NCBI GenBank assembly: GCA_002269645.1
Contig: NIVC01001300.1
Span: forward strand, 62,001 to 126,000
DNA: 64,000 nt
DNA from: Macrostomum lignano
Taxonomy: Eukaryota
Direction: 5' to 3'
This document shows, piece by piece, positions 1 through 63,837 of the stretch. Each line of letters begins with the position of its first letter. The first letter of the stretch is position 1. The notes under the pieces were generated by a model. That model saw only the letters and a list, made by a program, of their open reading frames with translations, was not told where the DNA came from and made no database searches. The position numbers and the translations under genes were made by a program.

Positions 1-1582
1 GAGCGAGAAGTTTTAACCCTGATGCTGACGCAGCCCTGTACAGTGAGAGTGTACGGGCAGAGAGGGGTGGGTGGACAGAGAACCAGCCACTAGGTTGTTA
101 TACTGTTGAAGCATAGGGAGCGAGAAGTTTTAACCCCGATGCTGACGCAGCCCTGTACACTGAGCGTGTACGGGCAGAGGGTGGGTGGAAAGAGATGTGA
201 ACAACACAGCCTGCTACAGGAGCCGGATAGAGAGGCGCATGCTAGGACAGAGAGGTAGTGTGAGTCACACACACCCCACAGAGAAAGCCATACAGAGGAT
301 AGAGAGCTCCCTCCCCAGTTGCAGGGGACAGAGAGGCAGGCAGGGTATGCAGGGGCATGCGAACCGTCAAGGGGCCACGCGAGGATAGAGTGGAGGAGCA
401 GAGATGTGTTTGGACAGAGAGCCAGCCACGTGTGCGTAGTGTGAGGGAACAGAAACATATCGAGCAGGAGGGAGATGGGGAGCAAACGCGCAGGGTAAGG
501 GAGCCACACAGGGCGGTACAGTGAGACACGGGCAGGGGTGGAGCCGTGCGTGGACAGAGCTGAACGGCACGGTCAGCTGCAGGAATAGGATGATAGAGAG
601 GCGCGGAGGGGGACAGAGAGCAGTGTGCAGGGGTAGGCAGCCACGCAGGCTGGGGAACAGAGAGGCGCGTGTCAGCCAGTTGCAGCCCGGGACAGAGAAG
701 TATGAAGGGGGGCCTGGGACAGAGTTGCGAGCAAGGCACAGAGAGAGGTAGGGTCTGGTAGCTATGTATAGACAGGGACCCACGCGAGGGCAGGACAGGG
801 GAGTAGACATGCAAGGGCAGAGAGGTGTGCGCGGAGGGAGACAGAGAGCAGTGTGTAGGGGTAGGTAACAGCAAACTTTAGTAGAGGCGCGCGCGGGGAC
901 GGAGAAACCAGTCTGAGCGTACAGAGACGTTACAGAGAGGTACACAAACAGAGAATACTAAAAAGCACATGTGTAGGGACAGAGACGTGAGGGAGAATCC
1001 ACCAAAACACGCTATGTATTATCAAAAGTTGGTTTTAGTGCCGCATATTTAATAGTGGGTAGTATAATAGTATGTACATAGTAGGTATAATAGTAGTAAT
1101 AATAGTAAGCATATTAGCCCAAAAGGTAGGCTAAAACTGCTAAACAGTGTACACATCCTCATCATCCCACAAGCCCCCTCTCCCGCCAGACTCACTCTTC
1201 CAGACCCTCCTGTATTGCTGTATGTAAGGAAAATATAGTGTAAAAATTCAGATGTTAACCTCTAGACCGCTGAAATCAGGGCACACTAGAGGGGTTTCGA
1301 GGGTCTGCAAGCTCTATGTAAGCTGCTCGAGGAGGTTCCAGGGGTGTCGGGAGGGTTTCCATTATGATTTTGAAAAAAAACTGGAGGCTTAAATACAACG
1401 TTTTATTCAAAAGCAGGTTATTTTAATGAAATAGCCAACACAACCATCGTCGAGAGTAGATTTTTATAAGAAACTAGGTATTACAGCAAAATAAACCTTC
1501 AAACCATATAAAATTGAATAAAAAGCAGACATAATAAATGGCAAGTATTTTAATAGAAAAGTAAGCGAATTAGTCACCCGGG

Positions 1583-1702
1583 GTGTACATCCGGCAGGGT
1601 GGGCGTCCAGCGAGTGTACATCTGACAGGATGGGTGTTCAGCAAGTGTACATCTGACAAGGTGGGCGTTCAGCAAGTGTACCTTCAGCGTCGAGTAGGTG
1701 TA
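1583..1702 (+). repeat. About 4 degenerate ~31-bp repeats each starting GTGTAC (mirror copy 5292-5411)
   Basis: Units read gtgtacatccggcagggtgggcgtccagcga, gtgtacatctgacaggatgggtgttcagcaa, gtgtacatctgacaaggtgggcgttcagcaa and gtgtaccttcagcg... Confidence 0.85.
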
Positions 1703-3457
1703 CACCCGTCAGTGGGGAACTCCGCCCCTCCCACCAATGTCGTGTGCATGCGGTTAGTCAGTATAGTGGTGGGGTAGACGGTGCAGGAAGGAAACCCAGA
1801 TGCTGACGCTGCCCTGTACAGCGAGCAACCAGCCCTCCTGTAGCAGGAGGGGGACAGAGAGTGCGTGGAGGCAGTAGGAGATAGAGGACGCTACCCGGCA
1901 TGTCGCAGCACGCGGCGCGGGACAGAGAGGCAGTGTGTAAGTCACCCCGCGGAGGGACAGAGAGCTGCCCTGGCAGGAGGCGCGGGACAGAGAGGCGGTG
2001 AATCACACCCCACGGAGAGAGCCGTACAGCGAGCTTCCCCACCCGAGTCCGGTAAATATTACAGAGTATTACGTGCACACGCCAGCCCTGAATACCAAGC
2101 CATACTAGTCTACCTGCAGTGCTCCCAGAGGGAAGGGATGGTCAGGAGTTACACACCAAGAATGCATTCATACAAAGAGTACACAACTCGAGCCCAGACA
2201 CCAAGTCACAGTCTACTTACAGTAGAGATGGTAGATTAATAGCAAGATTATATTACAATTAGACCTCCCTAGCACATGAGGAGTGAAATTCAATAATAAT
2301 TGAATTCAATAATAATACAACATTTAGACGTAGTAATTTAATTACAAAATACCACTAACACTGAGCCAACGAATTGTAGGTTACAAAGGAGTTGCCACTC
2401 ATATGGAAAGCCAGTATAATGCAGGTGTATATTATTAAAACATAGACAAAAACGATGCAGACGTATATACACACTATTGATTTTGTACATGTACATTTCG
2501 GCATATTACCACACATCGCGGGCACATATTATATATCGGGGGATAGGTTAAAATACACACATCGTAGATGTAGAAGCAGACACAATGCAGGAAAATTATG
2601 ATACGAGTGTACATATTAGTGCGTAAAAGTATCATATTATGACACCCTGTAGCACATATTGACATAATGCAGGGGAAAATATTGACAGAAATAGTACACA
2701 ATTGTAGAGGTAACAACCCGCCAACTAGTAAGGGCATCCAGCACTTGTTCAGGTTTTTATTATTTCGAGACGAGTGTCATGCCCCCGCAAGAGATCTTAT
2801 CAGAAATTTGTTGAACTCCACTGCAACTCTCCCCAGAGCCTCCAAATGTGAGTTTTTAACCCAGGGTCGAGTACAAAGGACCCGCCCACTCTTAACCCCA
2901 AGGGGTGATCCTAGCGGAGACCAAGTACAGTGCGGACGGAGAGGGGTAACAGAAAGCGCTGCATCAGACCGCGGGCTGCATTCCTCCCCGAGGTAGGCGC
3001 GTCAGCTCCCACTCCTCATTTAACCATCAAGTAAACTAAAGAAGTCAAGCAGAAAGCCTTACAATCACCCGCAACCAGCACAAGTAAGAGTACTTTCCAC
3101 TAGAGAGCCATAGTGCAAGATTCGCGAGCCAAGTTGAAGAAGCACACCAAATTACACTAAAGACATATGTATTAAAAAGCATACCGGCACCTCTACAAAA
3201 ACACAGTATGTACCGATTAAAGTTGCTTTTGGTGCAGTGTATTTAATAAAAAGCAGGTACCTAACACAAAAGTAGGCATCAATGCAGTGCACGGGCTAAA
3301 CTGTATTTACAAACGCAGGGCAACGAACTACACACAATGTAGCGCATAGACATAATTGTACGCATAAATGTACGCAATTTCCGGTATATAGGACCAAATG
3401 TACGCAAATGTACACAATGTACACAAACACAAACACACACACACACACACTCAGGCG

Positions 3458-3532
3458 CATCCTGCAGCGCATCCTGCAGCACCGATCGCCGCAGGCGATG
3501 GCGCCATCGGCAGGAAGCTCTTGCTGTGAATA
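3458..3532. other. Central asymmetric spacer able to fold as an imperfect branched hairpin
   Basis: CCGAT 3482-3486 pairs with ATCGG 3506-3510. Inside are CGCC-gca-GGCG (3487-3497) and the palindrome GATGGCGCCATC (3497-3508). The flanks are partially complementary. Confidence 0.75.
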
Positions 3533-6500
3533 CGCCTGAGTGTGTGTGTGTGTGTGTGTTTGTGTTTGTGTACATTGTGTACATTTGCGTACATTTGGTC
3601 CTATATACCGGAAATTGCGTACATTTATGCGTACAATTATGTCTATGCGCTACATTGTGTGTAGTTCGTTGCCCTGCGTTTGTAAATACAGTTTAGCCCG
3701 TGCACTGCATTGATGCCTACTTTTGTGTTAGGTACCTGCTTTTTATTAAATACACTGCACCAAAAGCAACTTTAATCGGTACATACTGTGTTTTTGTAGA
3801 GGTGCCGGTATGCTTTTTAATACATATGTCTTTAGTGTAATTTGGTGTGCTTCTTCAACTTGGCTCGCGAATCTTGCACTATGGCTCTCTAGTGGAAAGT
3901 ACTCTTACTTGTGCTGGTTGCGGGTGATTGTAAGGCTTTCTGCTTGACTTCTTTAGTTTACTTGATGGTTAAATGAGGAGTGGGAGCTGACGCGCCTACC
4001 TCGGGGGAGGAATGCAGCCCGCGGTCTGATGCAGCGCTTTCTGTTACCCCTCTCCGTCCGCACTGTACTTGGTCTCCGCTAGGATCACCCCTTGGGGTTA
4101 AGAGTGGGCGGGTCCTTTGTACTCGACCCTGGGTTAAAAACTCACATTTGGAGGCTCTGGGGAGAGTTGCAGTGGAGTTCAACAAATTTCTGATAAGATC
4201 TCTTGCGGGGGCATGACACTCGTCTCGAAATAATAAAAACCTGAACAAGTGCTGGATGCCCTTACTAGTTGGCGGGTTGTTACCTCTACAATTGTGTACT
4301 ATTTCTGTCAATATTTTCCCCTGCATTATGTCAATATGTGCTACAGGGTGTCATAATATGATACTTTTACGCACTAATATGTACACTCGTATCATAATTT
4401 TCCTGCATTGTGTCTGCTTCTACATCTACGATGTGTGTATTTTAACCTATCCCCCGATATATAATATGTGCCCGCGATGTGTGGTAATATGCCGAAATGT
4501 ACATGTACAAAATCAATAGTGTGTATATACGTCTGCATCGTTTTTGTCTATGTTTTAATAATATACACCTGCATTATACTGGCTTTCCATATGAGTGGCA
4601 ACTCCTTTGTAACCTACAATTCGTTGGCTCAGTGTTAGTGGTATTTTGTAATTAAATTACTACGTCTAAATGTTGTATTATTATTGAATTCAATTATTAT
4701 TGAATTTCACTCCTCATGTGCTAGGGAGGTCTAATTGTAATATAATCTTGCTATTAATCTACCATCTCTACTGTAAGTAGACTGTGACTTGGTGTCTGGG
4801 CTCGAGTTGTGTACTCTTTGTATGAATGCATTCTTGGTGTGTAACTCCTGACCATCCCTTCCCTCTGGGAGCACTGCAGGTAGACTAGTATGGCTTGGTA
4901 TTCAGGGCTGGCGTGTGCACGTAATACTCTGTAATATTTACCGGACTCGGGTGGGGAAGCTCGCTGTACGGCTCTCTCCGTGGGGTGTGATTCACCGCCT
5001 CTCTGTCCCGCGCCTCCTGCCAGGGCAGCTCTCTGTCCCTCCGCGGGGGTGACTTACACACTGCCTCTCTGTCCCGCGCCGCGTGCTGCGACATGCCGGG
5101 TAGCGTCCTCTATCTCCTACTGCCTCCACGCACTCTCTGTCCCCCTCCTGCTACAGGAGGGCTGGTTGCTCGCTGTACAGGGCAGCGTCAGCATCTGGGT
5201 TTCCTTCCTGCACCGTCTACCCCACCACTATACTGACTAACCGCATGCACACGACATTGGTGGGAGGGGCGGAGTTCCCCACTGACGGGTGTACACCTAC
5301 TCGACGCTGAAGGTACACTTGCTGAACGCCCACCTTGTCAGATGTACACTTGCTGAACACCCATCCTGTCAGATGTACACTCGCTGGACGCCCACCCTGC
5401 CGGATGTACACCCCGGGTGACTAATTCGCTTACTTTTCTATTAAAATACTTGCCATTTATTATGTCTGCTTTTTATTCAATTTTATATGGTTTGAAGGTT
5501 TATTTTGCTGTAATACCTAGTTTCTTATAAAAATCTACTCTCGACGATGGTTGTGTTGGCTATTTCATTAAAATAACCTGCTTTTGAATAAAACGTTGTA
5601 TTTAAGCCTCCAGTTTTTTTTCAAAATCATAATGGAAACCCTCCCGACACCCCTGGAACCTCCTCGAGCAGCTTACATAGAGCTTGCAGACCCTCGAAAC
5701 CCCTCTAGTGTGCCCTGATTTCAGCGGTCTAGAGGTTAACATCTGAATTTTTACACTATATTTTCCTTACATACAGCAATACAGGAGGGTCTGGAAGAGT
5801 GAGTCTGGCGGGAGAGGGGGCTTGTGGGATGATGAGGATGTGTACACTGTTTAGCAGTTTTAGCCTACCTTTTGGGCTAATATGCTTACTATTATTACTA
5901 CTATTATACCTACTATGTACATACTATTATACTACCCACTATTAAATATGCGGCACTAAAACCAACTTTTGATAATACATAGCGTGTTTTGGTGGATTCT
6001 CCCTCACGTCTCTGTCCCTACACATGTGCTTTTTAGTATTCTCTGTTTGTGTACCTCTCTGTAACGTCTCTGTACGCTCAGACTGGTTTCTCCGTCCCCG
6101 CGCGCGCCTCTACTAAAGTTTGCTGTTACCTACCCCTACACACTGCTCTCTGTCTCCCTCCGCGCACACCTCTCTGCCCTTGCATGTCTACTCCCCTGTC
6201 CTGCCCTCGCGTGGGTCCCTGTCTATACATAGCTACCAGACCCTACCTCTCTCTGTGCCTTGCTCGCAACTCTGTCCCAGGCCCCCCTTCATACTTCTCT
6301 GTCCCGGGCTGCAACTGGCTGACACGCGCCTCTCTGTTCCCCAGCCTGCGTGGCTGCCTACCCCTGCACACTGCTCTCTGTCCCCCTCCGCGCCTCTCTA
6401 TCATCCTATTCCTGCAGCTGACCGTGCCGTTCAGCTCTGTCCACGCACGGCTCCACCCCTGCCCGTGTCTCACTGTACCGCCCTGTGTGGCTCCCTTACC

Positions 6501-6804
6501 CTGCGCGTTTGCTCCCCATCTCCCTCCTGCTCGATATGTTTCTGTTCCCTCACACTACGCACACGTGGCTGGCTCTCTGTCCAAACACATCTCTGCTCCT
6601 CCACTCTATCCTCGCGTGGCCCCTTGACGGTTCGCATGCCCCTGCATACCCTGCCTGCCTCTCTGTCCCCTGCAACTGGGGAGGGAGCTCTCTATCCTCT
6701 GTATGGCTTTCTCTGTGGGGTGTGTGTGACTCACACTACCTCTCTGTCCTAGCATGCGCCTCTCTATCCGGCTCCTGTAGCAGGCTGTGTTGTTCACATC
6801 TCTT

Positions 6805-7235
6805 TCCACCCACCCTCTGCCCGTACACGCTCAGTGTACAGGGCTGCGTCAGCATCGGGGTTAAAACTTCTCGCTCCCTATGCTTCAACAGTATAACAAC
6901 CTAGTGGCTGGTTCTCTGTCCACCCACCCCTCTCTGCCCGTACACTCTCACTGTACAGGGCTGCGTCAGCATCAGGGTTAAAACTTCTCGCTCTCTATGC
7001 TTCAACAGTATAATAACCTAGTGGCCGTCTCTCTGTCCACCCCCCCCCTTTCTGCTCGTACACGCTCATTGTACAGGGCTGCGTCAGCGTTAGGGTTGAA
7101 ACTTCTCGCTCTCTATGCTTCAACAGTATAATAACCTAGTGGCCGTCTCTCTGTCCACCCCCCCCCCTTTCTGCCCGTACACGCTCATTGTACAGGGCTG
7201 CGTCAGCGTTAGGGTTGAAACTTCTCGCTCCCTAT
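6805..7235. repeat. ~118-bp tandem repeat, ~3.6 copies (mirror partial copies at 1-190)
   Basis: GTACAGGGCTGCGTCAGC recurs at 6836, 6953, 7071 and 7190 (spacing 117-119). Confidence 0.95.
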
Positions 7236-7240
7236 ACCCC

Positions 7241-7655
7241 ACAACCGTGTAGTGTCCTAGTATGGGCGCGACCTGGGTTCGATTTCGCTAGTTGAGATGT
7301 AGGTGAGAGAGGGGAAGAGGCCCGTATCGATGACTACATATCGGTGTACACACATATCGGGAGAGTGTACACTCGGGGCGCCTGCTGCATACATATCGGG
7401 AGGGGCGCCTGAGGCGGGGAGGGCGCCTGCGGCATACATGTCGGGGGAGGGCGCGTGCGGCGGGGAGGGGCGCCTGCGGCATGGACGCCTGCTGCTCTGG
7501 AGGGTGCGCTTGGGATCTGATTGATTTGGGATCTGATTTATTTATTGGGATCTAATATCGGGAGGGTGCGCCTGCGGCGCTTGGCGCCTGCGGCGCGCGC
7601 GCGCGCCGAGCGCCGATATCGATACGGGTATCGATCACCTAGTGATCGGGGCGCC
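7241..7655. other. GC-rich terminal module with iterated motifs, a (CG)n palindrome and a Y-shaped hairpin
   Basis: CGCCTGCGGC occurs at 7424, 7471, 7569 and 7585, plus variants. (C/A)ATATCGG is repeated and TTGGGATCT occurs three times. The palindrome CGGCGCGCGCGCGCGCCG lies at 7591-7608. The hairpin CCGAT-[ATCGATAC gg GTATCGAT][CAC cta GTG]-ATCGG lies at 7613-7649. Confidence 0.75.
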
Positions 7656-7727
7656 AGCCAATGAGAGGCGAGGAGGGTTGACACCCACCTCACCTCCAAA
7701 ATCAAGCCTTACGGGTTCATATAGTAG

Positions 7728-8336
7728 TGACACAACCCACCTGTATCCCACAGACACAACCCACCTGTATCCCACAGACACAACCCACCTGTATCCCACA
7801 GACACAACCCACCTGTATCCCACAGACACAACCCACCTGTATCCCACAGACACAACCCACCTGTATCCCACAGACACAACCCACCTGTATCCCACAGACA
7901 CAACCCACCTGTATCCCACAGACACAATCCACCTGTATCCCACAGACACAACCCACCTGTATCCCACAGACACAACCCACCTGTATCCCACAGACACAAC
8001 CCACCTGTATCCCACAGACACAACCCACCTGTATCCCAGACACAACCCACCTGTATCCCAGACACAACCCACCTGTATCCCACAGACACAACCCACCTGT
8101 ATCCCACAGACACAACCCACCTGTATCCCACAGACACAACCCACCTGTATCCCACAGACAGACACAACCCACCTGTATCCCACAGACAGACACAACCCAC
8201 CTGTATCCCACAGACAGACACAACCCACCTGTATCCCACAGACACAAACCACCTGTATCCCACAGACACAACCTACCTGTATCCCACAGACAGACACAAC
8301 CCACCTGTATCCCACAGACACAACCCACCTGTATCC
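7728..8336. repeat. 24-bp minisatellite CACAGACACAACCCACCTGTATCC (~25 copies) containing the GOPC exon-4 donor
   Basis: The periodicity is directly visible and gives an 8-aa repeat TDTTHLYP in the ORF track. Confidence 0.97.
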
Positions 8337-11300
8337 AGTGGCCAGATCCACAAACCGGTCGTCCTCATCTTCATCAGTCACTTCGTCATCATCAGCACTC
8401 CCTGGCTGGTCAACATCGGCAACAAAGACCAGAGTGAGTTCCACAGTGGACTCTCGAAGATGACTCAGCACTTGCACAGCGTCGTGATGTCGAGCCTCTC
8501 TCAGCGACACTCCGTCAACAGACAGAATGGCATCGCCAACATGAATCAGACCGCATCGAGCAGCTGGCAGACCCGGATGCAGCTCGGAAATGAGAATTGG
8601 GGCCCCGTGCTCGCGGCCTCCAACAATGGACACGCCTAAGCCTTCACCGGGGTCCTTGCTGACGCTGACTTGACGCGGTGAACAGTCAGTCAGCGATTCC
8701 TCCTGACCCGGTGCCAAGCCGTTGTTTGGTAGGAACCTAAAATGCATTTTGTTGAGTTTTGTCTACTAAAAGTAGCGAGAAGCATTTTTTAGGAGAATTA
8801 TGGCAGATTCTCAAGGGGAATTGAGAGAGATTCCCAAGGGGTTGTGGCAGATTCTCTATACGTATTGGGGGAGATACTCAACGGGAATTGGGGGAGATAA
8901 TCAAGGGGAATTGGGAAGGATTATCAAGCGGATTGGGGTAGATTCTCAAGGGGAATGGGGATATTCTTGGGGAATTCAGGGGAGATTCTTAAGGGAATTC
9001 GGGGAGATTTTCAAGATAATGGTGGGGAGATTCTTAAAGGGAATTAGGGAGATTCTCCAAGGGAATTGGCAGGAGATTCTCAAAGGGAATTCGGGAGATT
9101 CTCAAGGGAAATTCGGGAGATTCTCAAGGGAAATTGGAAGAGATTCTTAAAGGAATAGGGAGAGATTTTTAAGGGGAATCGGGGAAGATTAATAATAGCC
9201 TGTGCTCAAGGTCAGGCGAGTCAGTCTTTACAATCGTCAATCGCAGATTTCACCGACCTGGCAACGGAACGACCGCGACTCGCTCGAAGCAAAGTTTTGC
9301 ACCTGTGCAGTCGGATCTCAGCCTCCAGCTGCGACCACAGCCGCCTGCGCTCGCCAGGGCCCATCGGGTGACGGCCGCCGCCGCTGCCTCCGCTGCCACC
9401 ACCGCTGACACCGTCTGAAATGTAAAAATTAAAGGTTGAAATGGATTGATTGGAGTTGATGATGCGTTTTAAAGGCTGACCCAGACAATGATGATCTGGG
9501 AGGCTGGCCCAGCAACTGATGATCTGGGAGGCTGGCCCAGCAACTGAGGAACTGGGAGGCTGGCCCAGCAACCGATGATCTGGGAGGCTGGCCCAGCAAC
9601 TGATGATCTGGGAGGCTGGCCCAGCAACTGAGGATCTGGCAGGCTGGCCCAGCAACTGAGGATCTGGCAGGCTGGCCCAGCAACTGATGAGGATCTGGGA
9701 GGCTGGCGCAGCAACTGGGGATCTGAGAGGCTGGCCCAGCAACTGAAGATCTGGCAGGCTGGCCCAGCTACTGAGGATCTGGGAGGCTGGCCCAGCAACT
9801 GAGGATCTGGGAGGCTGGCCCAGTAAGGCTGGCACTCACCCAGACCAGTCCCATTGCTGCTGGCAGTCAGCAGCTGCATCTGTTGCACACGACCTGCCAG
9901 CTCCTTATTGAGGTATTTGGCAGTCAGGCGGGCAGCATACAGCTCAGTCTGCAGAGCCAGGCAGTACCGTCTGAGCTCAGCGTTCTCATTCACAACAATA
10001 TCCCGTTCGAATTTCAGAATCTCAGACTTGGCAGAGTCTGAGGATGCGGGCTGCGGAGGCTGGGCATCAACATCTGCTAGTGATGATGAAGCCTTGGCTG
10101 ATGCTGCACCAGCAGAGCTTGCAGCTGCGGCCTGAGCAGAGGCCAGGTCTGTGCGCATGGATACCAGCTGAGCCTAAAAAAATGTTGTCTTTTTTACAAT
10201 ACCATTATGGCAGACTGATTGATCAAGTTTTACTTTTTATTTAGAGGCTGGTGCGTGGTTACTTTTATTGAAAGTACATTTTAGTTAATATTATAGTAAA
10301 TGCATGTTACCTATTTATTGTATAACTTTACAGACAATTTAGAGCCTTCTTATAAGCTCAGTGTTTTGTGATAGAGGGTTGTAGCCAGTCTTACAACTGT
10401 AAGGTCAGGGTTTTGATTCTTAAAATCCCACTGGAACAATTTGTGTCCTTGAGCAAGACACTTAACTCTACATTGCTTCAGTTCACCCAGCTGTAAAATG
10501 GGGTGCCAAAATTAGCTGGGGTAATTGAGGGCTGTTTGGCAACCCCCCATCCCAGTCATTGGACTGAACAGCCTTACATTAGGTAATTTCAGTTCCATAT
10601 TTCTGTAATTAATATTATTCTGGAGCATTTTGGGATTTTGTGGATTTTAAAACATTTCAATAGTTAGTTTTAAACATAGAGTTTATAGATTTAAAAGCTT
10701 TTATAGGTCAGAGGTTTAGAAATATAAAGGGTAGGATATTTTGATAGATTTATAGACTACATTATATTGTCATTGTCAAAGGCATAAGAGCAGTTGTTAG
10801 CTTTTATATATACCAGTGGAGCCATTGTAGATACCCATTTTACTATATTTACTATAGTATTCTTTAGCTTAGATTTCTGCCATTGATTTGGATATACACA
10901 AGGAAAGTTGTTAATGAAGTTGTTGATAAAGTTTGTAGAGATATAAATATACCTTGTCTCTAATAATGCCTAGGTCCAGACTGCCCTTCATATTTATAGG
11001 GTATACATATTTGTTGTATCTGGTTGGTTGCTAATATTGGCCACTTACTTACTGTGATTTAAAAGACTATTGAAAGCCTTTGATTTCATTGGTAAAGGAT
11101 AACTTAGCAATAAGTAAATAAATTAATATTGCAAACTTCAGAGCCTATGAAAGGAACCCTTAAATTCTTCAGTTAGAACTAAAGTTAATATAAATTAACT
11201 TTCATTTATATCTAAGTTGCCAGCTGTCTAGGAGAAGATATGCATTAAACCTAACAGTCTATCCACTTAGCTTTAGATATAAGAAAAGATAAATTGAATA

Positions 11301-16391: not shown

Positions 16392-16785
16392 GCGTATACC
16401 TACTACGAGCCTAATACTACGAGCATAAACCACGCGCACTCGCAATACAGAAAGAACTCTGTTCTATATTTGAACAAATCGATCGGTTCTTATTCGACAC
16501 AGCAACATTTTCCAAAAATTTCCTCCATCCCGCCGTCATGCACCCCATAGACTACGTCCTTATCGCCTTGATCTGTCTGTCATCTGTTGCTATCGGGGTG
16601 TACACCTCGTGCACTGGCGGCCGGCAACAAACCACTAAGGAGTACCTGCTTGGCAACAGAAATCTGCAGTTGCTACCGGTGGCCATCTCAATTCTTGTGT
16701 CCTTTTGGTCCGCCATTTCTCTGCTAGGTACGTTTGTGTCATGTAATGATAACAGGACTGACAGCTTGCTTTTGATGTACGTGGA

Positions 16786-17720
16786 TGTCAGCTGAATCTC
16801 AGCTGAATCTCAGCTGAATCTCAACTGAATCTCAGCTGAATCTCAGCTGAATCTCAACTGAATCTCAGCTGAATCTCAGCTGAATCTCAACTGAATCTTA
16901 ATTGAATCTCAGCTGAATCTCAGCTGAATCTTAATTGAATCTCAACTGAATCTTAATTGAATCTCAGCTGAATCTCAACTGAATCTCAACTGAATCTCAA
17001 CTGAATTTCAACTGAATTTTAACGTATTTCAATTGTTTAAATTGAGTCAATTTTCAAACTAGTCAAAAGACAGTAGCAACTCATTACTAATGGAAACTGA
17101 TGATCCAAGGTGACACCTCTCCAGCTCAGAGAAGTCACTCAACAAGCAGCCAATTTGCATAATCGGTCAAGAGATTTACAGACAGGTAGAACAGCTGCAT
17201 GTAAACACGCTCAGTGCTTGAATTCAAATTAACTCGAATTTTGCTATCGGTGACGCAGTCCGCAAACTGACTGAGAGATCGTATCGGGTTCCCGGCATTG
17301 AGCTGCTTATTCTAATCAGTTCGCAGGTGAAAAACGCATGAACTTTCATGGTATCGACTTTCAAAATAGTTCCAATTTAGTTGAGCCACGGCTTGCATAC
17401 TTTGGCTTGAGATTCAGTTGAGATTCAGTTTGAGATTCAGTTGAGATTCAGTTTGGAATTCAGTTGAGATTCAGTTGAGATTCAGTTGAGATTCGGTTGA
17501 GATTCAGTTTGGAATTCAGTTGAGATTCAGTTGAGATTCAGTTGAGATTCGGTTGAGATTCAGTTGAGATTCAGTTGAGCTTCAGTTGAGATTCAGTTGA
17601 GACTCAGTTGAGATTCAGTTTAGATTCAGTCGAGATTCAGTTGAGATTCAGTTGAGATTCAGTTGAGATTCAGTTGAGATTCAGTGGAGATTCGGTTGAG
17701 ATTTAATGGAGATTCATCTG
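16786..17720. mobile_element. Foldback-like element, short version: (CTGAATCTCAA)n arm, ~385-bp core, (TTGAGATTCAG)n arm
   Basis: Inverted 11-bp arrays at 16786-17020 and 17406-17720 flank a core nearly identical to 47401-47785. Confidence 0.6.
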
Positions 17721-44221: not shown

Positions 44222-47200
44222 ATGCACCCCATAGACTACGTCCTTATCGCCTTGATCTGTCTGTCATCTGTTGCTATTGGGGTGTACACCTCGTGCACTG
44301 GCGGCCGGCAACAAACCACTAAGGAGTACCTTCTTGGCAACCGAAATCTGCAGTTGCTACCGGTGGCCATCTCAATTCTTGTGTCCTTTTGGTCCGCCAT
44401 TTCTCTGCTAGGTACGTTTGTGTCATGTAATGATTACAAGACTGACAGCTTGCTTTTGATGTACGTGGATGTCAGCTGAATCTTAGCTGAATCTCAACCG
44501 AATCTCAGCTGAATCTCAACTGGATCTCAACTGAATCTCAACTGAATCTCAGCTGAATCTCAACTGGATCTCAACTGAATCTCAACTGAATCTCAGCTGA
44601 ATCTCAACTGAATCTCATCTGAATCTCAACTGAATCTCATCTGAATCTCAACTGAATCTCAACTGAATCTCAACTGAATCTCAACTGAATCTCAACTGAA
44701 TCTCAAATGAATCTCAAATGAATCTCAAATGAATCTCAACTGAATCTCAACTGAATCTCAACTGAATCTCAACTGAATCTGAACTGAATCTTAACTGAAT
44801 CTCAACTGAATCTGAACTGAATCTTAACTGAATCTCAACTGAATCTTAATTGGAATCTCAGCTGAATCTCAGCTGAAACTTAACTGGATCTCAACTGAAT
44901 CTCAGCTGAATCTCAACTGAATCCCAGCTGAATCTCAACTGAATCTCATCTGAATCTCAACTGAATCTCATCTGAATCTCAACTGAATCTCAACTGAATC
45001 TCAACTGAATCTCAACTGAATCTCAACTGAATCTCAACTGAATCTCAAATGAATCTCAAATGAATCTCAACTGAATCTCAACTGAATCTCAGCTGAATCT
45101 CAAATGAATCTCAACTGAATCTCAACTGAATCTCAACTGAATCTGAACTGAATCTTAACTGAATCTCAACTGAATCTGAACTGAATCTTAACTGAATCTC
45201 AACTGAATCTTAATTGGAATCTCAGCTGAATCTCAGCTGAATCTTAACTGGATCTCAACTGAATCTCAGCTGAATCTCAACTGAATCCCAGCTGAATCTC
45301 AACTGAATCTCAACTGAATCTCAACTGAATCTCATCTGAATCTCAGCTGAATCTCAACTGAATCCCAGCTGAATCTCAACTGAATCTCAACTGAATCTCG
45401 ACTGAATCTTAGTTGAATCTCAGCTGAATCTTAATTGAATCTCAGCTGACTCTTAATTGAATCTTAACTGAATCTCAGCTGAATCTCAACTGAATCTCAA
45501 CTGAATCTCAACTGAATCTCAACTAAATCTGAACTGAATCTTAACTGAATCCCAACTGAATCTCAACTGAATCTGAACTGAATCTGAACTGAATCTCAAC
45601 CGAATCTGAACTGAATCTTAGCTGAATCTCAGCTGAATCTCAACTGAATCTTAACTGAATCTCAGCTGAATCTCAACTGAATCTGAACTAAATCTGAACT
45701 GAATCTGAACTGAATCCGAGCTGAATCTTAACTGAATCTCAACTGAATCTCAGCTGAATCTCAACTGAATCTCAACTGAATCTTAACTGAATCTTAATTG
45801 AATCTTAAGTGAATCTGAACTGAATCTGAACTGAATCTGAACTGAATCTCAACTGAATCTCAACTGAATCTTAACTGAATCTCAATTGAATCTTAAGTGA
45901 ATCTCAACTGAATCTCAACTGAATCTGAACTGAATCTCAGCTGAATCTCAACTGAATCATAGCTGGATCTTAACTAAATCTCAACTGAATCTTAATTGAA
46001 TCTCAGCTGAATCTCAATTGAATCTTAAGTGAATCATAGCTGAATCTCAACTGAATCTGAACTGAATCATAGCTGGATCTTAACTAAATCTCAGCTGAAT
46101 CTTAATTGAATCTCAGCTAAATCTCAGCTGAATCTCAACTGAATCATAGCTGGATCTTAACTAAATCTCAACTGAATCTTAATTGAATCTCAACTGAATC
46201 TCAACTGAATCTCAGCTGAATCTGAACTGAATCTCAACTGAATCTTAACTGAATCTCAACTGAATCTCAACTGAATCTGAACTGAATCTCAACCGAATCT
46301 CAACTGAATCTCAACTGAAACTCAACTGAATCTCAGCTGAATCTCAACTGAATCATAGCTGAATCTGAACTGAATCTGAACTGAATCTGAACTGAATCTC
46401 AACTGAATCTCAACTGAATCTTAACTGAATCTCAATTGAATCTTAAGTGAATCTCAACTGAATCTCAACTGAATCTGAACTGAATCTCAGCTGAATCTCA
46501 ACTGAATCATAGCTGGATCTTAACTAAATCTCAACTGAATCTTAATTGAATCTCAGCTGAATCTCAATTGAATCTTAAGTGAATCATAGCTGAATCTCAA
46601 CTGAATCTGAACTGAATCATAGCTGGATCTTAACTAAATCTCAACTGAATCTTAATTGAATCTCAACTGAATCTCAACTGAATCTCAGCTGAATCTGAAC
46701 TGAATCTCAACTGAATCTTAACTGAATCTCAACTGAATCTCAACTGAATCTGAACTGAATCTCAACCGAATCTCAACTGAATCTCAGCTGAATCTGAACT
46801 GAATCTCAGCTGAATCTTAATTGAATCTCAGCTAAATCTCAGCTGAATCTCAACTGAATCATAGCTGGATCTTAACTAAATCTCAGCTGAATCTGAACTG
46901 AATCTCAGCTGAATCTTAATTGAATCTCAGCTAAATCTCAGCTGAATCTGAACTGAATCTCAGCTGAATCTTAATTGAATCTCAGCTAAATCTCAGCTGG
47001 ATCTTAACTAAATCTCAACTGAATCTGAACTGAATCTCAGCTGAATCTCAACTGAATCTCAACTGAATCTTAACTGAATCTGAACTGAATCTGAACTGAA
47101 TCTCAACTGAATCTCAACTGAATCTCAACTGAATCTGAACTGAATCTCAACTGAATCTCAACTGAATCTGAACTAAATCTCAACTGAATCTCAACTGAAT

Positions 47201-48845
47201 CTTAATTGAATCTCAACTGAATCTTAACTGAATCTCAACTGAATCTGAACTGAATCTCAACTGAATCTCAACTGAATCTCAACTGAATTTTAACTGAATC
47301 TCGACTGAATCTGAACTGAATCTGAACTGAATCTCAACTGAATCTGAACTGAATCTGAACTGAATCTCAGCTGAATCTGAACTGAATCTCAACTGAATTT
47401 TAACGTATCTCAATTGTTTAAATTGAGTCAATTTTCAAACGAGTCAAAAGACAGTAGCAACTCATTACTAATGGAAACTGATGATCCAAGGTGACACCTC
47501 TCCAGCTCAGAGAAGTCACTCAACAAGCAGCCAATTTGCATAATCGGTCAAGAGATTCACAGACAGGTAGAACAGCTGCATGTAAACAGGCTCAGTGCTT
47601 GAATTCAAATCAACTCGAATTTTGCTATCGGTGACGCAGTCCGCAAACTGACTGAGAGATCGTATTGGGTTCCCGGCATTGAGCTGCTTATTCTAATCAG
47701 TTCGCAGGTGAAAAACGCATGAACTATATGGTATCGACTTTCAAAATAGTTCCAATTTAGTTGAGCCACGGCTTGCATACTTTGGCTTGAGATTCAGTTG
47801 AGATTCAGTTGAGATTCAGCTGAGATTCAGTTTGGAATTCAGTTGAGATTCAGTTGAGATTCAGTTTGAGATTCAGTTGAGATTCAGTTTGGAATTCAGT
47901 TGAGATTCAGTTGAGATTCAGTTTGAGATTCAGTTGAGATTCAGTTTGGAATTCAGTTGAGATTCAGTTGAGATTCAGTTTGAGATTCAGTTGAGATTCA
48001 GTTGAGATTCAGTGGAGATTCGGTTGAGATTCAGTTGGGATTCAGTTGAGATTCAGCTGAGATTCAGTTTAGATTCAGTCGAGATTCAGTTGAGATTCAG
48101 TTGAGATTCAGTGGAGATTCGGTTGAGATTCAGTTGGGATTCAGTTGAGATTCAGCTGAGATTCAGTTTGGAATTCAGTCGAGATTCAGTTGAGATTCAG
48201 TTGAGATTCAGTCGAGATTTGGTTGAGATTCAGTTGAGATTCAGTTGAGATTCAGTTGAGATTCAGTTCAGATTTAGCTATGACAAAAATTAATTTGTGC
48301 CTTAAACTCACACTACTGACAGTAGCTGCATAAAAGTGCGTCATATTTCCAGGTTCGCCGGCAGAGATATTCTATTTCGGCAGTCACTACAATGTGACAG
48401 CTGTTGGCATCTCTTTGGCCTGCATTGTCAGCGCTACCACATTTGTGCCCTTGTTCTACGAGCTGGAAATTACCAGCATATATGAGGTACTTGGGATTCT
48501 ATTTGAATTTATTTATTGCCTAATTTAATACTCCAATAAAAGTTGGTTCATATTGGGAAGAAATCGCATTTTAACTTCTGATGAGATTGAAATGAGATTC
48601 TCACGAGATTCTGATGAGATTGAATTGAGATTCTGATGAGATTGAATTGAAATTCTAATGAGATTGAATTGAGATTCTGATGAGATTGAATTGAGATTCT
48701 AATGAGATTGAATTGAGATTCTGCTGAGATTGAACTGAGATTTTGATTAGATTAAAATGAGATTCTGATGAGATTGATTTGAGATTCTGATGAGATTGAA
48801 CTGAGATTCTAATGATATCTCAATCAATCACTCAATCAATCAATT

Positions 48846-58333: not shown

Positions 58334-60264
58334 TCAGATGTGATAGTCAATTAGATTTGAAAACGCCCCAGTCCGTTTCAGCAGCCACAGACTCGCAGCA
58401 ACAGCCGCCGTAGCAACCGCGGCGGTGACCAGCAATGATGAATTCGACAAAAAGCCATCGGAGCCATGCTCCACCTCGCTGCAGAAACCTCCGCTGAGGC
58501 CGCCCCGCATGCCCAAGCGGATCCGATCCATCTGACCGAGAATGGCTGCCCGAGCTCCCGGCCAGGCGCCGGGACCGACCAGCCTAAACTGGTATGGGGT
58601 GCACGGCTCGAATACCACTGCTCCGAACAGGGCAGGGTCGGTGAGCAGCAGACGGAGCAGCGGTGGCCGACAGCCGATCTCTGCGGCCAACTCGTCCATG
58701 TAGGGAATCCAGTCCACCTGGGGGGATTTCAGGTTTTATCTTCTCTAAATAACATCACAATTTCACCTCTTACCTGAGTCCTAATTATCTCTTATCTCTG
58801 AATCCTAATTATTACTTATCTGAATCTTAATTACCTCTTACCTGAATCTTAATTATCTCTTATCTCTGAATCCTAATTATCACTTATCTGAATCTTAATT
58901 ACCTCTTACCTGAATCTTAATTATCTCTTATCTCTGAATCCTAATTATTACTTATCTGAATCTTAATTACATCTTACCTGAGTCTTAATTATCTCTTATC
59001 TCTGAATCCTAATTATCACTTATCTGAATCTTAATTACCTCTTACCTGAGTCTTAATTATCTCTTATCTCTGAATCCTAATTATCTGAATCTTAATTACC
59101 TCTTACCTGAATCTTAATTACCTCTTACCTGAATCTTAATTACCTCTTACCTGAGTCTTAATTATCTCTTATCTCTGAATCCTAATTATCACTTATCTGA
59201 ATCTTAATTATCTCTTACCTGAATCTTAATTATCTCTTACCTGAATCTTAATTACCTCTTACCTGAGTCTTAATTATCTCTTATCTCTGAATCCTAATTA
59301 TCACTTATCTGAATCTTAATTATCTCTTACCTGAATCTTAATTATCTCTTACCTGAATCTTAATTATCACTTACCTGAATCTTAATTATCTCTTACCTGA
59401 ATCTTATTTATATCTTACCTGAACCCTAATTACCTCTTATCTGAATCCTAATTATCTCTTGCCTGAATCCTAATTATCTCTTATCTGAATCTTTATAATC
59501 CTAATTATCGCTTATCTGAATCCCCACCCCTCACCTGAATGGTATGCCTGGCCGATCTGACAAACCGGGCCGCCACGGCTCTCCTCCTTTGCTGAGCATC
59601 CTCAATCATGTCCTGGGCGGGTGGCAACTGGCAGCTTCCCTTAGCAACGCGTGCAGCCCAGCGGCTCTGAGCCTCGGCAATGGGTATGGTGGCACCCAGC
59701 GGTTGCACAAATCCGATGAAAGCCAGCGAGCCGCTGGGCACCGAGGGGTGAAACACGTGCTTATAGAACCGGGTCTCATTGTTGCTGACCGAGAACTGCT
59801 CGCTGTCCAGGAATGGGAAGTCAATGCGGTACCCTGCGGTTGGAGAAATGAAACCAGGATTAATTTAAAACTGAGGTGCAAAATCTATCTAACTAAATAA
59901 CTATCATAATAACTTACTAACTTTCTAACTATCTGACTAGTTAACTAACAAACTAACAAACTAAACAAACAAATAATCAAACTGTCTAACAAACAAACAA
60001 TCTAACTAACTGACTAACTCACTCACTCACTAACTAACTAACTAACTGACTAACTAACTGACTAACTAACTGACTAACTAACTGACTAACTAACTGACTA
60101 ACTAACTGACTAACTAACTGACTAACTAACTGACTAACTAACTGACTAACTAACTAGCTAACTAACTCACTCACTAACTGACTAACTAACTCACTCACTA
60201 ACTGACTGACTAACTAACTAACTAACTGACTGACTAACTAACTAACTAACTAACTAACTGACTG

Positions 60265-60299
<35 letters not shown>

Positions 60300-60304
60300 G
60301 ACTG

Positions 60305-60339
<35 letters not shown>

Positions 60340-60485
60340 GACTAACTAACTATCTAACTAACTAACTAACTAACTAGCTAACTAACTAGCTAACTAACTA
60401 ACTAACTAACTGACTAACTAACTAACTGACTAACTAACTATCTAACTAACTAACTAACTAACTAACTGACTGACTAACTAACTAT

Positions 60486-60538
<53 letters not shown>

Positions 60539-60544
60539 CAACTG

Positions 60545-60576
<32 letters not shown>

Positions 60577-60601
60577 GCTAACTAACTAGCTAACTAACTA
60601 G

Positions 60602-60646
<45 letters not shown>

Positions 60647-60652
60647 CAACTG

Positions 60653-60706
<54 letters not shown>

Positions 60707-60712
60707 CAACTG

Positions 60713-60746
<34 letters not shown>

Positions 60747-60837
60747 CAACTGACTAACTAACTAACTAACTAGCTAACTAACTAGCTAACTAACTAGCTA
60801 ACTAACTAACTAACTAACTAACTGACTAACTAACTAT

Positions 60838-60871
<34 letters not shown>

Positions 60872-60968
60872 GACTGACTAACTAACTATCTAACTAACTA
60901 ACCAACTAACTAACTAACTAACTAACTAACTGACTGACTAACTAACTAACTAACTAACTAACCAACTG

Positions 60969-61000
<32 letters not shown>

Positions 61001-61025
61001 GCTAACTAACTAGCTAACTAACTAG

Positions 61026-61059
<34 letters not shown>

Positions 61060-62871
61060 CACTAACAAACAAACAAACAAACAAACAAACTAACTAACTC
61101 ACTAACTAACTAACTCACTAACAAACAAACAAACTAACTAACTAACTAACTAGCTAACTAACTAACTAACTAACTAACTGGCGCCAGGGTGCCTGCAGCC
61201 CACTTGCTGTTATTGCACAGGACCTCAAACAGATTGACAATAAGCTACATATAGAAAACGACAACGCTCAGCCACCTGTGCCATAGACAATCACATCGAC
61301 TCCGTTCACGCTGGACCCGTCAACAAAGGTGACGCAGCGATTGTCAATTCTGGCCACATCGGGCCGCACTTTAACAAGCCCCGCTGCCAGCCTGTTGGGC
61401 AGCTCGTCATTCACAAAGGTGTGCTGCTGCAGCGGGCTGTGAGCGGGCCGCAGCCCGTAAAGGTCGTGATCCAGCCTAGATTGAAGCGACTTCTCCAGCT
61501 GCCGTCTGAAATATCGCAATCCGATCAGGCGGATCAGCCACATTTGATAGCGACGCGCTAGCACGAGGTCTTTGGGCCAGCCGTGGTCCACCACGCGATT
61601 GCTGACCTGGAGTGGGAATTGTGGGGGTGTTTTTGGCACACGAAGAAACCTTAGACTGAGGTTTGCTGATGAAGCAAAGAGGATGAGAGAGGATGGGAGA
61701 GAAGAGAAGTAAGACGAGGGCAGGGAATGGTATGTAAAAGAAAGAAAGAAAAAAGAGGGGATTGAGATAATAGATGTAAAGAGAGGGGTGATAAGGGAAA
61801 GGTGAGACTAGAGAAGAGGAAAGGAGAGGAAAAAGGAAGGAGAGGAGAGGAGAGAGCAGAAGAGAGAGAAGGGAGACTAGAAGAGAAGAGGAGAGGAGAG
61901 GGGATGAGAGGAGAGGAGAGGAGATGAGATGAGAGAAGAGGGGATGAGAGAAGAGAGAGAGGAGATGAGATGACAGGAGAGGGGATGAGATGAGAGAAGA
62001 GGGGATGAGAGAAGAGAGAGAGGAGATGAGATGACAGGAGAGGGAATGAGATGAGAGAAGAGGGGATGAGAGAAGGGAGAGAGAGAGGAGGTGAGATGAG
62101 AGGAGAGGGGATGAGAGAAGAGAGAGAGGAGTTGAGATGAGAGGAGAGGGGATGAGAGAAGAGAGAGAGGAGTTGAGATGAGAGGAGAGGGGATGAGATG
62201 AGAGAAGAGGGGATGAGAGAAGAGGAGAGGAGAGGAAGGGAGAGGAGAGAAGGTGGGAGGAGAGGAGAGGAGAGAAGATAAGAGAGTCAAATAAGTGAAG
62301 ACATAAGAGATAGCAGACACGAAATGGGGGAGGGCAACGTGAAGAATGGGATAAATGCGACAGGGCAACAAGAGGCGCAGGCAAGTGAGATACTGCATGG
62401 CAGATATTCGGAGCACTCAGAGCAAATTATTAAAACCCAGTGCGCTTACCCAAGTGCCTCTCTTGGTGGACCAGTAGACCACCCGAGCCCTGTGCGACAG
62501 CTCCACCACAGCATCGCCAGCCGAGTTGCCCGCCCCAATCACCAGCACAGTCTTGTCCAAGAATTTCTCGGACAGCGGATCGCGACAAGAGTGCGAATGA
62601 AGTACCTCGCCAGGGAAACTGTCAGCTCCCGGATACGCGGGCAGATTGGGGATGGCGTGATGCCCTGTGCAGACCCACACAGCATCGAAGGTCTCGCATT
62701 GCTCTTCGTTAGGCTCGTTGCCAACACCGGCTGCTGGTCTGAAGGCGACCAGCCACTTGTCAGGGTCCGACGACGTCTTGCGGACCTGAGTTGGAGAGCA
62801 GATTGCTGTGTGTTGAAGCACATTATTTCCTTAGTTAGTTAGTCAGTTAGTTAGTTAGTTAGTTAGTTAGC

Positions 62872-62907
<36 letters not shown>

Positions 62908-62914
62908 AAGTCAA

Positions 62915-62947
<33 letters not shown>

Positions 62948-62954
62948 AAGTCAA

Positions 62955-63015
<61 letters not shown>

Positions 63016-63016
63016 G

Positions 63017-63055
<39 letters not shown>

Positions 63056-63070
63056 AAGTCAATTAGTCAA

Positions 63071-63103
<33 letters not shown>

Positions 63104-63272
63104 AAGTCAATTAGTCAATTAGTTAGTTAGTTAGTTAGTCAGTTAGTTAGCTAGTTAGTTAGTTAGTTAGTTAGTCAGTTAGTTAGTCAGTTAGTTAGTT
63201 AGTTAGTTAGTCAGTTAGTTAGTCAGTTAGTCAGTTAGTTAGTTAGTTAGTCAGTTAGTTAGTTAGTTAGTC

Positions 63273-63315
<43 letters not shown>

Positions 63316-63316
63316 C

Positions 63317-63379
<63 letters not shown>

Positions 63380-63380
63380 C

Positions 63381-63439
<59 letters not shown>

Positions 63440-63837
63440 CAGTTAGTTAGTTAGTAAGTCAATTAGTTAGTTAGTTGGTTAGTTAGTTGGTTAGTTAGTT
63501 AGTTACCCACCTTGACAATCTCTGTGCCAAACCGGATGCTACTCCGCAGGTTGAACCGCTCAGCATAGGCCTGTATATACTCAAACACCCGACTGTTGTG
63601 CAGGAAGTTTGAGTACTCAGCTGGCGGAGGGAAATCTGAGAAAGCCGACATCTCCTTGCTGGTGTTCATCATGGTGGTACGCATAACACAGGCCTTGCCG
63701 TCGACCAAATCTGTGTAGCGCCACAAACCTCCAAGATCGCTGGATCGTTCGAAGGCCATGGGTTCGAGACCCTCATCTAGGCAGGCCTTGACAGCAGCAA
63801 TGCCACTCACTCCAGCGCCAATTATGCAGATGCGCAT
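58334..63837 (-). CDS. Flavin-containing monooxygenase (animal FMO1-5 type), intact; exons 63837-63511, 62785-62450, 61606-61276, 59833-59535, 58717-58334
   Basis: The FAD motif [30 protein letters not shown], the FMO signature [12 protein letters not shown], the NADPH motif [21 protein letters not shown] and a C-terminal hydrophobic anchor are present. Exon lengths 327+336+331+299+384 nt join in frame. Confidence 0.96.
58770..59510. repeat. ~22-bp minisatellite TGAATCTTAATTATCTCTTACC filling FMO intron 4
   Basis: Direct periodicity. Confidence 0.94.
59940..61180. repeat. (CTAA)n microsatellite in FMO intron 3
   Basis: Directly visible. Confidence 0.98.
61680..62290. repeat. GA-rich low-complexity/degenerate repeat in FMO intron 2
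   Basis: Directly visible. Confidence 0.92.
62831..63504. repeat. (TTAG)n microsatellite filling FMO intron 1
   Basis: Directly visible; it is the reverse complement of the intron-3 array. Confidence 0.98.

Follow-up and report, generated by a model that had tools for sequence, protein, structure and literature searches.

The closest described systems are the Polintons/Mavericks, which the available parts of PMC8097293, PMC10748475 and PMC8502044 describe as 13–25-kb units carrying polymerase and integrase together, with terminal repeats of up to about 1.5 kb; the same part of PMC8097293 gives vertebrate Mavericks as single units of 12.7–24.6 kb with 6-bp duplications and (AGT)2, (AG)3 or (AC)3A ends. 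In addition, a terminal-protein domain is reported in Polinton polymerases (PMC11161782, in extract), and C. elegans loci are reported that have protein-primed B polymerase (pPolB) and terminal repeats without an integrase (10.1101/2024.01.15.575659, in extract). Polinton replication has so far been argued almost wholly from gene content. Here we analyze a stretch of 64,000 nt from Macrostomum lignano (GCA_002269645.1, contig NIVC01001300.1, forward strand 62,001–126,000; the window, to which all plain positions refer), in which a 75-nt spacer separates the arms of a long palindrome. This spacer is the mid-point of an integrated mobile element that is non-coding and palindromic throughout and of which the genome contains dozens of copies, and the termini of this element recur on two further element classes that carry Polinton genes. 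We regard the palindrome as a likely snap-back satellite of these partners, whose replication probably depends on their protein-primed polymerase and whose insertion depends on their integrase. The genome is referred to as G000 and its contigs by C numbers (e.g. C1300).

The whole element measures 8,494 bp, from 766 bp before the window start (G000:C1300:61235) to window position 7728, so that its true ends lie about 4.2 kb from the centre on either side. It is bounded on both sides by ACTACTA and flanked by the target duplication GACACA. Within the window, four single-base gaps are the sole differences between the arms around the spacer. The parts of the element are the following:

1..3457, unstranded: left arm, extending 766 bp beyond the window start to G000:C1300:61235, with terminal ACTACTA preceded by GACACA
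3458..3532, unstranded: asymmetric centre of 75 nt, an imperfect, essentially unbranched hairpin, better on the minus strand; same sequence in 25 of 48 parsed rows
3485..3499, unstranded: tip stem ATCGCC-gca-GGCGAT, whose core CGCCGCAGGCG recurs in terminal repeats
3497..3508, unstranded: 12-nt perfect palindrome GATGGCGCCATC, overlapping the tip stem as a competing fold
3533..7728, unstranded: right arm, 4,196 bp, non-coding
3540..3571, plus strand: (GT)n tract adjoining the centre; the mirror (CA)n ends at 3450, and copies differ by length slippage
4992..5420, unstranded: internal block, 71–75% like the terminal repeat of the capsid/integrase segment; mirror about 1574–2001
6816..7235, plus strand: 118-bp tandem repeat, 3.6 copies, holding a 25–32-bp motif common to the terminal repeat of the capsid/integrase segment
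7467..7728, unstranded: outer block, 87% similar to bases 1–297 of the terminal repeat of the polymerase segment
7702..7721, minus strand: hypervariable terminal cassette (bases 8–27 from the end)
7722..7728, minus strand: invariant terminus 5'-ACTACTA
7729..7734, plus strand: 6-bp target site duplication GACACA

Exact 6-bp target duplications flank 29 of 31 independent two-ended copies, which are 5.1–9.4 kb long, most of them 8.3–9.4 kb. The two arms of one copy are 0–0.3% apart in 30 of 34 rows, as compared to a median distance to other copies of 1.3–14%, and the arm bases beside the spacer change together on both sides between variants. A search of the open reading frames (ORFs) of the palindrome found neither pPolB nor rve integrase. 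The three arm ORFs are uninterrupted over their full length in 1, 10 and 0, respectively, of 32 arms; the frames are not kept, and a coding role of the arms is not supported. Ends of the CACTA/Transib type were rejected, because the duplication is 6 bp long and accompanies ACTACTA ends.

Searching the genome with the end sequence identified two further element classes with the palindrome's termini. The first, the polymerase segment, is about 9.4 kb long with terminal repeats of about 900 bp and codes for pieces of a protein-primed B polymerase (PF03175, E 2e-14) as well as an orphan ORF; a PC4-like ORF (Pfam E 0.04, atlas 0.87) is a lead only. No integrase or capsid was recognized on it, and all 16 two-ended copies among the 26 examined have 6-bp duplications. 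The second, the capsid/integrase segment, is about 10.5 kb long with terminal repeats of about 680 bp. It carries an rve integrase (E 5e-10), a double-jelly-roll-like capsid ORF (atlas 0.98; PF21738 on 14–30% of members), weakly matched protease and ATPase ORFs, a Fic ORF and several ORFs without label. The capsid ORF has no Pfam or PDB sequence match, its label being derived from the atlas and gene order. No polymerase was recognized on this segment; 7 of its 13 copies are matched at both ends, all 7 with duplications.

As far as sequence can tell, the Polinton genes of this system are thus split over two elements with common ends. Within 25 kb of the 98 polymerase loci there is not one of the 62 close capsid loci, both lists being partial (98 of 451 polymerase and 114 of 193 capsid candidates scored). 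The palindromic arm is a mosaic of both segments' terminal repeats, the matching parts being the blocks 4992–5420 and 7325–7728 and short motifs; other subfamilies have a polymerase-segment-like block in place of the block at 4992..5420. For the greater part of the arm, comparison with four partner elements gave no match to either partner.

The likeness to Polintons therefore lies in the 6-bp duplication, the short tandem terminal motif and the long terminal repeats of this system, and in the pPolB, rve integrase and capsid-, protease- and ATPase-like genes of the partners. It differs in that the genes are placed on two elements, the terminus is ACTACTA, and a third element is gene-free and consists wholly of terminal repeat. 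The palindrome lacks the combination of pPolB and rve in one element that marks an autonomous Polinton, these genes being located on the two other elements; it does have termini in common with polymerase and integrase elements, as is characteristic of non-autonomous, Polinton-dependent elements.

Other members of this gene complement were observed in the same genome. In the few copies read, the gene split recurs in a second, diverged pair whose ends are ACTACGTA. In detail, G000:C296:95034-104825 is a 9.8-kb capsid/integrase element without polymerase and with a 6-bp duplication, and G000:C1300:~153300-162900 is a polymerase-only element inside an (ACT)n tract. A third, distant capsid family of about 31% identity has 16 loci among the matches listed (e.g. 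C356:649877, C297:249253 and C2529:33821); the one copy read has integrase, protease and ATPase in its vicinity. The polymerase frame of the polymerase segment (L058:1738-5770) is broken by spliceosomal-intron-like stretches, unlike the intronless vertebrate Mavericks, and holds an insert that we take, as a lead only, to be a VSR-like nuclease. This insert had no match in NCBIfam or PDB. A nematode Polinton with a VSR-like nuclease domain is mentioned in the available part of PMC10748475.

Division over two segments has a counterpart in the bidnaviruses (BmBDV), which, according to the available text of PMC4938981, have two segments with a 53-nt common terminal sequence followed by segment-specific repeats, and protein priming. 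The likeness consists in pPolB on one of two segments with a short common end, here of about 32 nt; the same partial text describes bidnaviruses as single-stranded and without an integrase, and no variable cassette or palindromic satellite is described in it.

A sign of contact between the three classes is found in the cassette behind the invariant terminus. Among 29 long satellite arms, diversity is 0 at end bases 1–7, 0.456 at bases 8–27 and 0.022 at bases 28–60, compared to 0.018–0.112 in 300-bp windows along the arm. The terminal survey covered 70 ends (32 of the polymerase segment, 7 of the capsid segment and 31 of the satellite), and these fall into 37 cassette types, 11 of which occur in two or three element classes; the type in the window is also present on polymerase-segment copies and, in one capsid-segment copy, at a single end. 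A few bases inward of the cassette, the sequence sets the capsid segment apart from the polymerase segment and the satellite. The four-gamete test was failed by 123 of 190 cassette site pairs, and as many as 10 of the 20 cassette bases differ between copies whose bodies are only 0–0.1% apart. Satellite copies nearly always carry matching cassettes at both ends. Two polymerase-segment copies and one capsid-segment copy have unlike cassettes at their two ends, with a good duplication around each. These data suggest that the three classes may replicate together and exchange their first approximately 30 bases. It was also observed that four polymerase-segment copies (C24, C811, C4072 and C1165) keep an identical one-base end-to-end difference at base 8.

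The spacer itself had been taken in a preliminary description of this DNA for a branched, imperfect hairpin, neither random nor adapter-derived, and possibly a resolved hairpin telomere. Its biological origin is well founded. An 18-nt spacer core has 53 exact genome matches, 27 forward and 26 reverse, and the control has none. The 53 rows surveyed comprise 52 of these 53 matches and one near match; 48 could be parsed and represent 13 heritable subfamily variants, of which the window's accounts for 25 rows. In all 4 public runs consulted, which come from 3 studies, overlapping contigs tile the region 3450–3540. Long-read sequencing is known to generate long, near-perfect palindromes artificially, and no single public contig spans the whole centre, which would fit a sequencing adapter, a read fold-back or an assembly error. 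For the family such an origin is refuted by the genome matches, the heritable variants, the target duplications at the far ends and the contigs of all four runs, which cover the spacer and run past both ends of the tiled stretch; we give it practically no weight, except that single one-armed copies may be artefacts. The arm-to-spacer contig depth is near 2:1 in two runs, a ratio that was not used since depth does not measure copy number. Neither the spacer core nor the terminal-repeat motif matched anything in viral_contigs, and Rfam gave no hit to the element at gathering score, the only match being to mir-3149 over the CA/GT tracts, which scores 55.5 bits where 100 are required.

The fold of the spacer is less pronounced than had been proposed. 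Folding of 3440–3550 does surpass controls (z scores of -5.6 and -8.5), but this is owed to the perfect arms; the spacer folded alone reaches -0.83 on the plus and -1.78 on the minus strand. We therefore clamped the fold by fixing 12 bp of arm on each side and shuffling only the spacer letters (500 shuffles). The imperfect hairpin was upheld on the minus strand (z -2.51; 5/500 shuffles equally good) but not on the plus strand (z -0.67; 114/500), whereas the 77-nt variant of 10 rows scored -2.42 and -3.46, with 5/500 and 1/500 shuffles equal on the two strands. The patchy complementarity of left and right halves is present, but in local score, left half against reverse-complemented right half, it is borderline for the 75-nt variant of the window (equalled in 55 of 1000 shuffles, as compared to 1 of 1000 with the 77-nt variant). 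A branched or T-shaped tip was ruled out by the sampled structures, since the minus strand forms a single hairpin loop, one bulged rod, in 940 of 1000 samples and the plus-strand branch is a 2-bp helix with p 0.52.

Both caps named in the preliminary description, CGCC-gca-GGCG (3487–3497) and GATGGCGCCATC (3497–3508), exist, though they share base 3497. The better tip stem pairs 3485–3490 with 3494–3499 and takes three bases of GATGGCGCCATC (3497–3499), so that the two caps compete. The tip core CGCCGCAGGCG occurs 5 times in the terminal repeats of the element and 4 times in those of the polymerase segment, and is absent from the other 56 kb of the window. The 12-nt palindrome includes, in inverted orientation, two copies of what may be a YY1-like core.

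Mismatched terminal hairpins of parvoviruses and poxviruses occur after resolution as two complementary flip/flop isomers. Under the corresponding explanation of this locus, the spacer would be the resolved hairpin telomere of a linear replicon of about 4.3 kb, the palindrome a dimer junction, and the tip would be inverted by nicking and extension in each round. The resemblance consists in a mismatched hairpin at the centre of a palindromic junction, and the imperfect hairpin on one strand is in line with it. Both orientations of the spacer are indeed found in the genome (27 plus, 26 minus), but as the element is symmetric, orientation relative to the flanking DNA records only the direction of insertion. 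Likewise, the two spacer orientations of a symmetric palindrome are its two strands, and complementary hairpins need no resolvase.

Markers in the arms are therefore more informative than orientation. A k-mer screen for swapped markers was swamped by homopolymer errors, and only individually checked substitution markers were retained. In one subfamily of 10 rows, inserted at many sites and with several end types, inherited arm mismatches at distances of about 25 and 81 nt from the spacer never change sides (10/10 and 10/10 rows); two further near markers keep their side in 3/3 and 2/2 copies, all four markers lying within about 80 nt of the spacer. By comparison, a private allele about 1.05 kb from the spacer lies in the left arm of 1 copy, the right arm of 3 and both arms of 1; in the sister pair C1575/C2944 it swaps together with two neighbouring indels. 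The centre has thus been inverted or converted relative to the distal arm at least once, which is explicable by ordinary arm-to-arm exchange.

The allele at about 1.05 kb and the swapped indels would suit a flipping telomere, as would the clustering of symmetry breaks at the centre: among spacer-bearing copies, symmetry breaks less than 200 nt from the spacer in 23 of 49 rows (22 after removal of one microsatellite artefact) and at 200–3500 nt in 3. However, the four near markers never swap, although a nick further out would carry them with the tip. In addition, the tip is unbranched, and no Rep, resolvase or protelomerase was recognized in a Pfam comparison of 18 partner ORFs, several of which have no label. 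Integrated copies are always in the supposed dimer form, with integrase-type ends, and these ends are open and of Polinton type, about 4.2 kb from the centre and flanked by a 6-bp duplication. We consequently judge a resolved telomere to be very improbable: the hairpin form is plausible for a partly self-complementary spacer of biological origin, but the replicon-end frame in which it had been placed is wrong.

Rearrangements beginning at the spacer tip were observed in C1197, C1368, C1607 and C261, including partial inversion, inverted duplication, tandem spacer duplication and a 16-kb two-spacer element. At G000:C56:~660650 a spacer without right arm has a capsid-segment-type end about 1.26 kb before it and different upstream sequence, which suggests a hybrid or older form. 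Spacer-less derivatives occur in C100, C1923, C1242, C1300:338559-342683 and C3748; these include a palindrome of 6.7 kb whose centre is new and longer, and a one-arm form of 4.1 kb that has 400-bp repeats and was found three times with identical flanks. Among the segments, a capsid segment has an internal inverted duplication with 3.7-kb arms (G000:C1313:243594-257956), and a fold-back of the polymerase segment is located at G000:C3431:1-15373. Such copies with large internal inverted duplications are possible intermediates towards palindromic forms.

The common termini, the 6-bp duplications, the mosaic arm and the cassettes found across classes lead us to prefer the snap-back satellite of a split Polinton. 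Starting from the observed anatomy, duplications, common ends, arm homogenization and fragility of the centre, the following steps can be proposed. The linear duplex would be copied from both protein-primed ends by strand displacement, and each displaced strand would fold on itself into a hairpin of about 4.3 kb, whose open end would be a ready double-stranded origin and whose closed end would be the 75-nt spacer. Copying through the spacer tip would restore the full palindrome, and complementary tips would arise from the two strands with no need for a resolving cut. As molecules that replicate together switched templates, the arms would stay alike and the first approximately 30 bases would be swapped between satellite and segments. 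The partner's integrase would then insert the satellite, packaging being conceivable since satellite lengths approach segment size, and the integrated centre would act as a fragile site. Replication, packaging or integration in trans is proposed here only from the common ends and the duplications.

Several points weigh against the satellite as described. The spacer has diverged at the same rate as the inner arm (3/75 against 34/737 differences between the most distant subfamilies), and its plus strand in the window folds no better than shuffled sequence, so that nothing points to selection for a special tip structure. The data, an assembled genome and short-read contigs, contain no free linear, hairpin or packaged form. 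Arm likeness could also stem from gene conversion after insertion or from assembly polishing, and some one-armed copies may owe their form to an assembly that broke off at the palindrome centre, though simple assembly breaks are unlikely for the eleven centre-broken copies that have duplications at both ends. Cassette type and body distance are still correlated overall (rho 0.43). Finally, the 16 distant capsid loci are likewise without a listed polymerase nearby, which makes the co-location test weak by itself; because of this blank and the partial lists, the element-by-element gene content is the stronger evidence for the split.

Similarity in rate between spacer and arm would also be expected if the palindrome were a foldback element, or one resembling a miniature inverted-repeat transposable element, that was moved by the Polinton integrase alone, by cut and paste or by copying with host replication. 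Its centre would then be the fossil of one fold-back event, stabilized by its asymmetry. Indeed, the nested short inverted repeats of the spacer resemble a template-switch scar, further tip switches are seen in C1197 and C1368, and an integrase alone suffices for 6-bp duplications. Foldback transposons (Tetris, FB) reportedly have long inverted arms, internal tandem repeats and a short or no middle, and the present element shares the long inverted arms with internal tandem repeats and the short middle; it differs in that its ends and duplication match the Polinton system of the same genome. This explanation accounts neither for the swapping of bases 8–27 between the satellite and both segments, nor for near-identical 4.3-kb arms across subfamilies up to 14% apart, nor for the clustering of lengths near segment size, and we consider it unlikely.

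Fold-back molecules of other systems can be compared with the proposed snap-back satellite. Protein-primed linear plasmids reportedly include a hairpin/duplex deletion derivative of the kalilo plasmid and hairpin plasmids of yeast pGKL1, and palindromic mini-replicons have reportedly been obtained with phi29. These derivatives share with the proposed model the protein-primed ends, the fold-back centre and the interconvertible hairpin and duplex; they are mitochondrial, cytoplasmic or in-vitro molecules without integrase, whereas the present satellite is nuclear and integrated, has 6-bp duplications and is tied to a capsid-encoding partner. Snap-back defective viral genomes are near-complete non-coding palindromes according to the available part of PMC13506859, and symmetric as well as asymmetric snapback genomes are described for adeno-associated virus (PMC10924063, in extract). 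Their likeness to our element consists in the near-full-length palindrome, the lack of coding capacity and the reliance on the enzymes of a parent, which for our element is proposed. According to the same partial accounts they arise anew from the parent during infection, whereas the palindrome described here is a stable, integrated lineage of several subfamilies with a fixed 75–77-nt centre, and most of its arm has no partner match.

More tentatively, and with somewhat less than even confidence, the polymerase segment, the capsid/integrase segment and the gene-free hairpin satellite may form one three-part, integrating, virus-like system. Its members would be co-replicated and co-packaged and would draw on one reshuffled pool of 20-base origin cassettes, the spacer being the turnaround of a free hairpin replicon. 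A gene-free palindrome spread with Polinton ends would show which cis signals suffice, and the predicted half-length snap-back hairpin, a distinctive intermediate that should be easy to detect, offers a means of testing the protein-primed, extrachromosomal model in an animal. The variable 20-base cassette common to three elements is direct sequence evidence that they meet and exchange ends; its sharing supports a truly segmented Polinton and points to an unexplained diversification at the origin. Furthermore, the system would offer a way for perfect palindromes of 9 kb, which are normally unstable, to become dispersed over a genome. Our literature search came upon no description of a Polinton satellite that is palindromic throughout, of a Polinton divided over two segments or of a variable cassette at the termini; as it did not extend to subscription papers, entries of the Repbase type or supplements of preprints, earlier publication is still conceivable.

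Adjoining the element on its right side, two host features were found:

7729..8336, plus strand: host 24-bp minisatellite, split by the insertion and present on the far side of the element too
8330..8747, minus strand: host exon with GOPC/CAL-like PDZ domain (E 1.5e-27)

The element probably sits in the intron following this GOPC/CAL-like exon. The remainder of the window is rich in mini- and microsatellites. At 59885–63505, (CTAA)n and (TTAG)n arrays are inverted around an (AGAGG)n tract. Paired head-to-head 11-bp satellite arrays, followed by 4-bp and 29-bp arrays, are present twice, at 16652–17716 and at 44347–48274, and are probably one repeated element.

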